Source of the DNA: Marinicella sp.
GTDB lineage: Bacteria > Pseudomonadota > Gammaproteobacteria > Xanthomonadales > Marinicellaceae
Direction of reading: 5' to 3'
NCBI GenBank assembly: GCA_965230295.1
Contig: OZ246001.1
Span: 576,001-640,000, forward strand
DNA length: 64,000 bases
Of this stretch, positions 904-56,899 are shown piece by piece. Below the pieces are notes generated by a model that worked only from the letters and a program-made list of their open reading frames with translations, was not told the DNA's origin and searched no databases. The position numbers were made by a program, and so were the translations under genes. The first letter of the stretch is position 1; the number at the start of each line of letters is the position of its first letter.

Positions 904-1377
904 GGAAAGCTGCTGAGCAGCTTGACCCACCGAGCCGGTTAGCAAATCATGCAATAATGGCGGTTTTTCAAAGCAAAGAAGCCTTGATGTAATGATTGAT
1001 TAGCCGTGAGCTTTTGTTATAGCGGCCGCTATCGCTCCTAGCTATCGCGGCAGACCTACATCCATGTAGTCACCTCTGATACCGGCATCCTGCCTCCTCA
1101 GAGGACTTACTTCCATGTAAGCCAATCAGAGGCGAAGAGAATAGCCAATGAGCATATGGCGATTTGACGAAGTCAAGAAGCCTTATGTGAATGGCGTTAT
1201 AGCACAGGCAATGAAAGTTGGGCGGTTTTATCGAAGATAAAGAAGCCCGATTTGAATGCCGCAGTGCGTGCGAGGTAGCATGTCATGTTCGCCTCGGCAG
1301 CTACCGCATGGATCCCCAGGACGGGGTGAATGCAGAGAATTGTTGGGAACAATTGCAGGAAAGCCCCAGAACATACC
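904..1377 (+). other. Structured non-coding element, copy A (long form); ncRNA or ssDNA-structured repeat
   Basis: Shares 36/37 nt 5' end and a 24-nt identical block with 56739-56885, and a 34-nt identical block with 33116-33492; many hairpins; no credible ORF. Confidence 0.75.
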
Positions 1378-1481
1378 TTAAGTAACATGCTCAAACTTAT
1401 AATTAGCAAATTACCCCACTCTAATCACTCAATCGGAGCGACACTCACCATATATTCAAACTCCAGATCAGGAATAGTTAA

Positions 1482-1636
1482 CCGCTGGCTGAGCGGAGTC
1501 GAAGCCCGATGAAACCAAGTCATCACAATGATCACTTCGGCTTCGCTCAGTGAACGGTTTTGGTGGCTGAGCGGAGTCGAAGCCTCATGATGCAATGGTA
1601 CTATTGATGATCACTTCGACTCCGCTCAGTGAACGG
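1482..1636. repeat. Two tandem inverted doublets of a REP-like unit (REPIN/BIME-like)
   Basis: GGCTGAGCGGAGTCGAAGCC at 1487 and 1565; inverted CACTTCG(G/A)CT(T/C)CGCTCAGTGAACGG at 1533 and 1612; period 78-79 nt. Confidence 0.85.
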
Positions 1637-26693: not shown

Positions 26694-26742
26694 TCCAGGC
26701 AAATTCTCCAGGCAAATTCTCCAGGCAAATTCTCCAGGCAAA
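26694..26742 (+). repeat. 13-bp tandem repeat (3.8 units)
   Basis: TCCAGGCAAATTC x3 plus TCCAGGCAAA. Confidence 0.95.
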
Positions 26743-33115: not shown

Positions 33116-33492
33116 GGAGAACTGTCGAACAGTTCGACCAGCGCAGGTAATGAAAGCTTGGTGGTTTACCTGATAAGGTAATAAGCCTTGCTTGAATACC
33201 ATAGCGCGTGCACTCGGTTAGGCAGATCATGTAAGAATGGCGATTTGACAAAGTCAAGAAGCCTTGATGGAATGATCGATAAGCCGTGAAGCCTCGCTGG
33301 TCGCTTCCGCATCGATCCCCAGAACGGGGTGAATGCAGAGAATTGTTGGGAACAATTCCTGCCTGCTCACGCGACAGACCTACATCCCTGTAGGCCAGCC
33401 AGAGGGTGTAAGCCCGAGATAGCAAGCCATGCCCGTCGAGGCCGTTTTCACTTTTGTTTCAACAAAAGTGAATGAAGTCCCAAGGGCATTCC
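33116..33492 (+). other. Structured non-coding element, copy B (divergent, rearranged modules)
   Basis: Same core as copies A and C with compensatory stem changes; shares modules with both. Confidence 0.75.
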
Positions 33493-33534
33493 TTTATAAT
33501 ATGACGTACAAATTTTAAATGGAGCTGCAAAACT

Positions 33535-43685: not shown

Positions 43686-43760
43686 GGACGCGTAGCTCAG
43701 CGGGAGAGCACTTCGTTGACATCGAAGGGGTCACTGGTTCAATCCCAGTCGTGTCCACCA
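43686..43760 (+). tRNA. tRNA-Val (GAC)
   Basis: GGACGCG/CGTGTCC acceptor, CTTCG-TTGACAT-CGAAG anticodon arm, GGTTCAATCC T-arm, encoded CCA. Confidence 0.98.
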
Positions 43761-56738: not shown

Positions 56739-56885
56739 GGAAAGCTGCTGAGCAGCTTGACCCGCCGAGCCGGTTGGTGAGCCTTGCGAAACAGAGGCGA
56801 AGAGCGCGAGGTAGCATGTCATGTTCGCCGTGGTCGCTTTCACTTTTGTCAGGAACAAAAGTGAATGAAGCCCCAAGAACATTCC
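56739..56885 (+). other. Structured non-coding element, copy C (minimal 147-nt form)
   Basis: Core blocks near-identical to copy A; TTCACTTTTGT/ACAAAAGTGAA hairpin shared with copy B. Confidence 0.75.
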
Positions 56886-56899
56886 TTAGTTAATGGCGC

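Follow-up and report, generated by a model that had tools for sequence, protein, structure and literature searches.

A mosaic intergenic repeat family in Marinicella with a conserved core fold and hairpin units in fixed order

The stretch of 64,000 nucleotides from a Marinicella genome that was analyzed here (genome positions 576001-640000, referred to as the window) contains three related repeats, designated A, B and C. These are members of one non-coding intergenic repeat family with around 100 copies in this genome. The starting point was a prediction made from the letters of the window alone, according to which plug-in hairpin modules are shuffled between the copies of the element. The mosaic that was recovered consists in the presence or absence of units in a fixed order, so that 'shuffling' overstated the matter. 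The core fold shared by the copies is strongly supported as real, and we consider it rather probable that the family represents a non-autonomous, structure-dependent mobile repeat, diversified by the gain and loss of units and by recombination between paralogous units. The literature on Marinicella repeats and on mosaic, modular or interspersed repeats (supplementary files aside) gave no account of this family, which is undescribed, yet of a known kind, namely the mosaic non-autonomous intergenic repeat.

The genome is a single contig of 4,008,074 bases (44% G+C, 97.9% complete). It was scanned with a search keyed on the common 5' end GGARARCTGYYGARCAGYTYGACC and the common 3' end GAARNCCCMAGRRCATWCCTT, which yielded 78 complete head-to-tail copies with a total length of 25,692 bases, or 0.64% of the genome. 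A BLAST search with copies A, B and C as queries returned 126 merged genomic intervals. The ends are fixed in all copies (5' GGAAAGC..., 3' ...CATTCCTT), and the lengths fall into discrete classes, of which those of 149 nucleotides (nt; 14 copies), 236 nt (7) and 633 nt (6) are accompanied by classes of 420, 356 and 485 nt and others. The core splits into two lineages, one with an A-type head (around 65 copies, including A and C) and one with a B-type head (around 13 copies, including B). Within the window itself, a repeat scan ties the three loci together (families D3-D5, D7, D8, D15 and D17). The median identity between copies of the same length at separate loci is 93% for the 149-nt class and 96% for the 633-nt class. 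Because copies of the same architecture at different loci are this similar, we conclude that several architectures were each multiplied as such.

When all copies are aligned to the core, the extra sequence is found at a few fixed core positions, around 37, 47, 65, 89, 91-94 and 119-123. Reference modules were excised from the long copies and mapped onto all 78 copies, which resulted in 42 distinct module strings; 20 copies have no large module. The strings are built from units of two types. The K units (k2, kB, a, a2, aB, c, d, g and the inner parts of f and fB) are ten paralogues with one common architecture and differing stems: outer stem, AATGA, middle stem, GR-TTT, inner stem, 3-nt loop, inner stem, AAGAAG, middle stem, GAATG, outer stem. 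The Y units (b, b2, bB and e) follow the common plan X, CCGCATCCTGC, X', ACYTACATCCATGTAAG. Units of both types frequently occur in tandem (k2-a, b-b2, c-d), their starts and ends coincide with helix boundaries, and the core's own tail hairpin, as read by eye, looks like a K unit. A further unit of 49 nt, p, sits within Y units, and a head hairpin, H1, opens the element. The copies in the window are composed as follows, in window coordinates:

904..1379, + strand: copy A, A-type, 476 nt, with H1, a, b, b2, c, d and p, followed by an alternative tail (genome 576904-577379)
904..927, + strand: head hairpin H1 of A, GGAAAGCTGC-TGA-GCAGCTTGACC, identical in 24 of 24 positions to C (56739-56762)
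942..1004, + strand: K-type unit a of A, in the core P2 arm (element positions 39-101), with the K-family fold
1005..1123, + strand: Y-type units b (1005-1069) and b2 (1070-1123) in tandem (element positions 102-166 and 167-220), both 100% identical to the reference copy
1140..1266, + strand: K-type units c (1140-1200) and d (1201-1266) in tandem; d is the 'late' module of the original prediction
1311..1354, + strand: the first 44 of the 49 nt of unit p, fused straight to tail AAAGCCCCAGAACATACCTT (1355-1379); genome match 577311
33116..33494, + strand: copy B, B-type, 379 nt, with H1, kB, aB, the Y unit bB holding p, and the core 3' domain with the tail hairpin
33140..33210, + strand: K-type unit kB, immediately 3' of H1 (element positions 25-95), the 'early' module, 71% identical to d of A
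33222..33284, + strand: K-type unit aB, 83% identical to a of copy A
33314..33362, + strand: unit p, 49 nt, in Y unit bB, preceded by CCGCATC and followed by CTGCT; genome match 609314, 98%
33446..33494, + strand: tail hairpin TTTCACTTTTGT...ACAAAAGTGAA and 3' end ...CCCAAGGGCATTCCTT of B, core-fold helices 4 and 6
56739..56887, + strand: copy C, the 149-nt minimal core, among the 14 copies of that length, located between two convergent genes

The order of the modules is the same in all strings, k < a < b < b2 < c < d < g < e(p) < f. The lone odd label, in copy 2487719, stems from a truncated b that cross-matches the paralogue e3. This colinearity in all other copies largely speaks against shuffled modules. 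The observations from which shuffling had been proposed are sound in themselves, as every quoted string was recovered at its position and the recurrence of the element goes far beyond chance. More explicitly, a 34-nt string does occur both in A (1321-1354) and in B (33324-33357), within a stretch of 44 nt of which 43 are identical (family D7), the tail hairpin TTCACTTTTGT/ACAAAAGTGAA is common to B and C and missing from A (D8, D17), and the GGYGRTT-hairpin-AAKAAGCC unit recurs three times in A (around 959, 1158 and 1222) and twice in B (around 33160 and 33239; D3). The module starting with AGCRC, which lies late in A (1201-1270) and early in B (33140-33210), reads AGCRCAGGYAATGAAAG...TTGAATRCC..GYGCGTG in both copies, but it is not one module that has moved: d and kB are position-specific paralogues, identical in 52 of 73 aligned columns (71%). 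Combinatorial assembly thus holds in the sense that the copies are mosaics (42 strings in 78 copies) and that units of one type occupy several core positions, and it does not hold in the sense of permutation.

Recombination between units, which had also been proposed, accounts for several copies. Copy 2934277 has a B-type head immediately followed by unit d of the A type (97% identity to d), a/d fusions are seen in copies 3334366 and 3441525, and a/c fusions in copies 113794 and 3281049. In the 3' arm of A, the second hairpin of p is joined to a homologous alternative tail hairpin, which is present in five other odd tails; the p-tail fusion of A itself recurs at genome positions 3656769 and 3094699. 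The units are paralogues, and slippage or unequal recombination would have added and removed them as entire hairpins; the fusions, the chimeras and the transfer of p fit ectopic recombination or slippage between paralogous hairpins. A dedicated template-switch mechanism, as originally suggested, is not needed to account for these products, although it may have had a part in the case of p.

Unit p is the sole unit that was placed in two different host units. It has 25 genomic matches, 17 of which lie in the e unit (A-type), 4 in the b unit (B-type, including B) and 3 in fusions to the alternative tail (including A), the last being a partial match (91%) elsewhere. One may wonder whether the hairpin units, or at least p, are small site-specific insertions, that is mobile units nested within a mobile element. 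In support of this, the boundaries of p (CCGCATC on one side, CTGCT on the other) are the same in both host units, and p is 98-100% identical between them whereas the host flanks are only around 73% identical (11 of 15 aligned positions; longer flanks compared by eye). The shared flank identity amounts to just 5-7 nt, which is short for ordinary homologous recombination, and units begin and end exactly at helix boundaries. We nevertheless consider this doubtful. Apart from the partial match, all matches of p are confined to the family (24 of 25), the K positions are each occupied by a diverged paralogue of their own and not by a single shared sequence, and no duplication signature can be read at the boundaries beyond an ambiguous CTGC or ATC. 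The tandem paralogues (b-b2, c-d, k2-a) and the fusion products are in keeping with duplication and recombination.

Short-read assemblies break at repeats of this kind, so that one might suspect the arrangement to be an assembly artefact. This can practically be dismissed. Many loci with unique flanks show the same architectures: the arrangement of B was found at two further loci (91-92% identity over around 380 nt), the a-b-b2-c-d-p string of A in 6 full 633-nt copies and its p-tail fusion at the two loci given above. Independently assembled relatives hold the same core. In addition, contigs of sequencing run X1 span both flank-element junctions of B without difference, although X1 may represent the source sample and thus not be independent. 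These contigs confirm the junctions of B only, as its repeated middle (33232-33374) is covered by no listed X1 contig.

To evaluate the core fold, 54 core copies from 15 genomes were aligned, 18 from this genome and 36 from 14 relatives; 4 of the 40 fetched relative copies were excluded because of a loop insertion of 15-18 nt. The fold is made up of the head hairpin, the P2 arm, which is branched, and the 3' domain, which a long-range helix closes. RNAalifold recovered 42 pairs, 22 of which show compensatory double changes, and 97.9% of the cells are paired on this structure. The number of double-change cells was 185, compared to 43.9 +/- 6.2 after shuffling (0 of 500 shuffles as good), where it should be considered that the structure was derived from the same sequences and that the relatives share ancestry. 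When the partner was slid by 1-3 columns, pairing fell to 36-40% and the double-change pairs to at most 7. Compensatory changes were found in 6 of the 9 pairs of helix 1 (H1) and covariation in 5 of the 6 pairs of the long-range helix that closes the 3' domain (columns 86-91 with 144-149). Furthermore, a copy from a genome of 62% G+C, belonging to another family of the order, keeps all helices with different letters. Considering this conservation and the size of the effect, chance is an unlikely explanation and the core fold is strongly supported.

The fold has a preferred strand. For the 29 pairs that are predicted on both strands, the top strand (the direction from GGAAAG to CCTT) contains 39 G-T cells, versus 10 A-C cells. 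With RNA parameters the top strand folds better in 59 of the 78 copies, by 6.0 kcal/mol on average, and with DNA parameters in 49 of the 78, by 1.1 kcal/mol. The P2 arm contains two near-invariant wobble pairs, between columns 36 and 59 (52 of 54 copies) and between columns 39 and 56 (50 of 54). The internal loops of the K units are purine-rich on this strand, and the commonest loops consist of 3 nt, C-GAA-G or C-AAA-G.

These features raise the question whether the family consists of structured non-coding RNAs, with the top strand transcribed, the fold functional as RNA (e.g. as a multivalent protein-binding scaffold or a stabilizer of mRNA ends) and the units as expansion segments on an RNA core. 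The strong covariation together with the two near-invariant G-U pairs of P2, the much stronger preference for the top strand with RNA than with DNA parameters (-6.0 versus -1.1 kcal/mol), the conservation of purine-rich internal loops in all K units and the maintenance of the fold across families would all agree with this, and so would the tandem G-A positions that become Watson-Crick pairs in other lineages (as read from the alignments). Nevertheless, we regard it as unlikely. The 3-nt loops that predominate are very stable in DNA, around 100 copies with 42 architectures are unlike known ornate RNAs, and no conserved promoter is visible in the core alignment. Rfam covariance models gave no relevant match in the window at gathering scores, and at E-values up to 10 merely chance snoRNA and miRNA matches around A and B. 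(The only match at gathering score is a tRNA gene at window positions 43686-43757.) The genomic positions of the element, which differ between species, and its orientation, as described in the following paragraphs, also argue against an RNA.

The flanks of the copies are mutually unrelated and lack conservation, which speaks against an RNA, and the boundaries are sharp. A C occupies position -4 in 59 of the 78 copies, and the sequence is rich in A/T from -3 to -1 and from +1 to +4. No target duplication was detected, as flank k-mers (k = 2-6) matched at the shuffled expectation for three choices of the boundary. A comparison of the head with the reverse complement of the tail showed agreement in most copies at 9 of 16 positions (GGAA.G.T..TG.G) and never or rarely at the other 7; this agreement could equally reflect a helix between the two ends. 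The gene context was taken from a crude map of open reading frames (ORFs). According to this map, 21 copies lie between convergent genes, 21 in tandem-sense, 21 in tandem-antisense and 15 in divergent arrangement. Since the four arrangements are filled nearly evenly, the orientation of the element is not tied to the direction of the neighboring genes. Likewise, 42 of the 78 copies share the strand of the upstream gene and 36 are opposite to it, which speaks against a family of structured RNAs. Eighteen copies overlap a called ORF, and 11 of these ORFs represent one spurious frame within the element. A coding frame through the element was considered and rejected: it is open in some copies, but the unit lengths of 49, 55, 64, 65 and 97 nt are not multiples of three.

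That whole elements have arrived at their present sites is indicated by orthologous sites that lack them. At the locus of B, the same two flanking genes are adjacent in the relatives G015, G003 and G022, with spacers that are around 380 nt shorter. The element is absent from the orthologous spacer in G015 and G022, where the insertion point lies between ...CGTT and TATAAT... and has no duplicated bases beyond a possible TT; G003 has, by reading, an apparent decayed remnant of the tail. The TATAAT, directly 3' of B at window positions 33495-33500, is conserved in three relatives before the downstream gene. The insertion of B may have displaced the upstream promoter region of that gene. At the locus of C, the convergent genes are 5-40 nt apart without an element in all six aligned relatives (G022, G007, G003, G012, G017 and G023). 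In the reverse direction, nine elements of relatives were checked for orthologous sites in this genome; synteny was kept for one (L032), and this element, from G019, has no counterpart at the syntenic site. The paralogous gene pair 2341842 / 3091771, with a mini hairpin versus a 356-nt element upstream, was rejected as evidence for insertion as the upstream regions are not homologous.

The copies are oriented with respect to replication. From the cumulative GC skew, the origin lies at around 1.72 Mb and the terminus at around 3.86 Mb, which agrees with the fact that 60% of the called ORFs run with replication. In 56 of the 78 copies (p = 1.5e-4) the top strand corresponds to nascent lagging-strand sequence, so that the strand that folds serves as the leading-strand template. 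The bias comes mainly from the multiplied architectures. The numbers of copies in the biased orientation are:

149-nt architecture: 14 of 14, including one just beyond the terminus that is flipped as predicted
633-nt architecture: 6 of 6
236-nt architecture: 5 of 7
420-nt architecture: 3 of 3
356-nt architecture: 2 of 3

The other 45 copies are divided 26 versus 19. With respect to the replication fork, the young subfamilies insert in a single orientation (14 of 14 and 6 of 6), and the length of the element makes no difference to its replication orientation (Mann-Whitney p = 0.42). For a structured RNA the bias would mean that 72% of the copies are transcribed head-on to replication.

As stated above, we favor a non-autonomous mobile repeat that depends on its structure. 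Whole elements of several architectures (149, 236, 420 and 633 nt) would have been copied to new intergenic sites, and insertion would occur without target duplication, at sites that usually have a C 4 nt upstream of the insertion point followed by A/T. Compensatory change has preserved the entire fold and not the ends alone, and for this reason the substrate recognized by a trans-acting machinery may well be the folded single strand, more likely single-stranded DNA at the replication fork than RNA. The fusions and chimeras, as well as the transfer of p between Y units, would result from ectopic recombination or gene conversion that involves paralogous units of the same copy or of different copies. 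We have seen no evidence for a host function of the element.

Several observations weigh against this interpretation. Empty sites are available for two loci only, and the spacer at the C locus of G021 holds a decayed copy of the other, B-type lineage. The orientation bias is not general: when the GC skew of 20-kb windows around core copies was used for four relatives, the biased orientation was found for 10 of 11 copies in G021 and 4 of 5 in G014, but for 3 of 8 in G001 and 4 of 10 in G023, or 21 of 34 pooled (p = 0.23), and the rule therefore holds in this genome and in G021. The better-folding strand is on the leading-strand template, as opposed to the lagging-strand template in the IS200/IS605 model. 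If the optional units simply ride along, some other cause (e.g. selection or correction from arm to arm) has to be found for their compensatory evolution. Moreover, the genome offers no evident mover. There is no match to a reverse transcriptase (RVT_1, PF00078), a TnpB zinc ribbon, an IS110 DEDD domain or an IS91 Y2 domain in the 97.9% complete sequence. A multi-copy ORF resembling that of an insertion sequence (IS) was not found either, although a single-copy DDE transposase or integrase would escape this count, as these families were not searched individually. The only transposase-like gene that was found, which encodes a Y1 (HUH) protein, is accompanied by a different repeat and does not follow the distribution of the element. 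It has no match (E <= 0.001) in the element-rich relatives G016, G019 and G021 (the latter 99% complete), which are three of the 8 relatives with at least 14 element matches, and it is present in three (G003, G018 and G020) of the 5 relatives without an element match.

The decayed copy in G021 (G021:C53:16250-16730) is split by a pair of hairpins that resemble repetitive extragenic palindromes (REPs), in a genome without a Y1 match. It could represent either a hot spot or an ancient insertion that was lost elsewhere.

The Y1 gene (genome 1669261-1669824, L081:1300-1863) encodes 187 amino acids. Its top NCBIfam match, 'REP-associated tyrosine transposase' (RAYT), scores 67 bits, which is below the 80-bit cut-off, and the gene is found in 16 of the 24 genomes of the genus. 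As the sole gene of this kind, it is the obvious candidate for moving a family like the bacterial interspersed mosaic elements (BIMEs) or REPINs, with which the element has in common the lack of target duplication, the richness in hairpins, the high copy number and an orientation bias related to replication. Even so, we deem it improbable that this gene moves the element. Apart from its absence in element-rich relatives, the gene is flanked by hairpins of the type GTCGAC-TGAA-GTCGAC, a second repeat with around 48 genomic matches (at most 2 mismatches) that occurs within 300 nt of merely 2 of the 78 elements, and the element lacks the tagged-palindrome form of 20-40 nt that is typical of REPs. 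The second hairpin repeat, which is unrelated to the element, is probably the REP family of this genome, since similar hairpins flank the RAYT-like gene. In the window this repeat, GAGCGGAGTCGAAGC and its inverse, occurs just 3' of A (1480-1640), at 1491-1505 (+), 1569-1583 (+) and 1613-1627 (-).

Two other types of mobile element were considered and are not supported. A classical MITE (miniature inverted-repeat transposable element) does not agree with the absence of target duplication and of a partner IS with matching ends: the sole ORF family with more than two members at an identity of at least 85% is the spurious frame within the 633-nt element. A retroelement (group II intron or retron) finds no support either, as the genome has no PF00078 match. 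The genome appears free of multi-copy insertion sequences. None of the head-to-tail pairs encloses a gene, and a loose scan (4 mismatches) gave mostly chance matches.

The family extends beyond this genome. BLASTN with the core gave matches in 18 of the 23 other genomes of the genus and in 1 of 17 from other genera. A covariance model of the core (R1) had matches in 15 of 151 genomes of the order, this one included. These comprise 11 of the 12 other sampled genomes of the genus, a second genus of the family (one genome, 7 matches), another family (G033, 16 matches) and one further single match. The tail motif was also encountered in public contigs titled Marinicella or as metagenome-assembled genomes of unclassified Gammaproteobacteria or Lysobacterales.

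Some variants are worth mentioning. At genome positions 1312973-1313530 around 4.5 units of a 122-nt variant of the element without the head hairpin form a tandem head-to-tail array, and overlapping tandem matches like these were also seen in G015 (C19 and C12) and G008 (C50). Three near-identical perfect hairpins of 23 nt, GGAAAGCTGC-TGA-GCAGCTTTCC, lie at gene ends (genome 902116, 1199635 and 2341472) and correspond to the head of the element fused to its final bases; they might represent derivatives left by extreme deletion, footprints or just terminators of the ordinary kind. Separate from the family, the window contains a perfect 13-nt tandem repeat, TCCAGGCAAATTC, of around 3.8 copies (26694-26742).

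Taken further, the data allow a bolder proposal, which we put forward tentatively. The whole 149-nt fold, as opposed to its two ends, might be the substrate of a new replication-coupled, strand-specific copying process at work in a genome that has no recognizable transposase for it, or the family might be an ornate RNA of around 100 copies that grows by accretion of K and Y units; in either case it would represent a new class of mobile element defined by structure, and units such as p could plug into matching junctions. It is decades since BIME, BOX and the neisserial mosaics became known, and how they are built and move has mostly remained unsettled. The Marinicella family provides a clean case in this respect, with a genome otherwise free of insertion sequences, sharp boundaries, a core fold proven by covariation across genera, and gains, losses and fusions of two unit types that can be read copy by copy. 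A mover, if found, may be a new structure-recognizing enzyme that acts on single-stranded DNA, and if the fold works as RNA, the family would be a rare natural example of the modular growth of a structured RNA. In practice, the family may serve as a strain-typing marker and is a cause of assembly breaks in Marinicella genomes.

Several known systems share part of these properties. ERIC/IRU, Correia and the neisserial mosaic elements are imperfect palindromes located between genes, some of which carry internal insertions at fixed sites; their terminal inverted repeats are clear, and they show TA duplications. As for REPs, the Marinicella genome likewise combines a high-copy extragenic hairpin mosaic with a single Y1 gene. 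BIMEs, REPs and REPINs are described as high-copy extragenic hairpin mosaics with a single-copy domesticated Y1 transposase (PMC2817692, PMC3116915), where REPs are palindromes of 20-40 bp in alternating orientation. The Marinicella element differs in that its 149-nt multi-helix core has all units on one strand, and the presence of a RAYT does not track it.

Members of the IS200/IS605 family insert into and excise from the lagging-strand template; they have hairpins near both ends, make no target duplication and have a left end that abuts a short preferred target (PMC5027513). The Marinicella element resembles them in the lack of duplication, in its hairpins 3 nt from the 5' end and around 25 nt from the 3' end and in its fork-related orientation. 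It differs in that the target is loose (C at -4 in 59 of 78 copies, then A/T), that the two end hairpins are unlike each other and that f-bearing copies have multiplied despite a disrupted tail hairpin. Furthermore, the strand that folds better is on the leading-strand template, TnpB is absent and the Y1 gene is uncorrelated. In this strand polarity the element matches the pattern of large integrons. The attC sites of integrons (e.g. the VCRs of Vibrio) are recombination substrates that vary in length and are recognized as a folded single strand by structure and not by sequence, and in large, sedentary chromosomal integrons the folding strand is on the leading-strand template, which limits rearrangement (PMC5371416). 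The attC sites form one array beside the integrase and flank cassettes, whereas the Marinicella elements are scattered one by one between genes.

In design, the BOX element of Streptococcus pneumoniae and S. suis is the closest analogue. It is described as a highly base-paired composite interspersed repeat of 67-637 bp with more than 100 copies, composed of boxA, a variable boxB array and boxC, in which the internal module folds separately, so that it may be absent or multiple, and larger arrays vary more. BOX also has terminal inverted repeats, target duplications and a link to an IS through the ends (PMC3049150). The combination of fixed terminal and variable internal modules is also found in the Marinicella element (42 architectures in 78 copies, with shared ends and colinear order). 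The likeness is one of design, and the two occur in different phyla. The Marinicella element has weak inverted-repeat likeness (9 of 16 positions) and no duplication, in a genome without a multi-copy IS-like ORF. Its units are of two types at six or more fixed sites, as opposed to one tandem array, and its whole core shows covariation across species. In the defining features that were tested the element differs from BOX, as it does from the classical MITEs, REP/BIME and IS200/IS605 derivatives.

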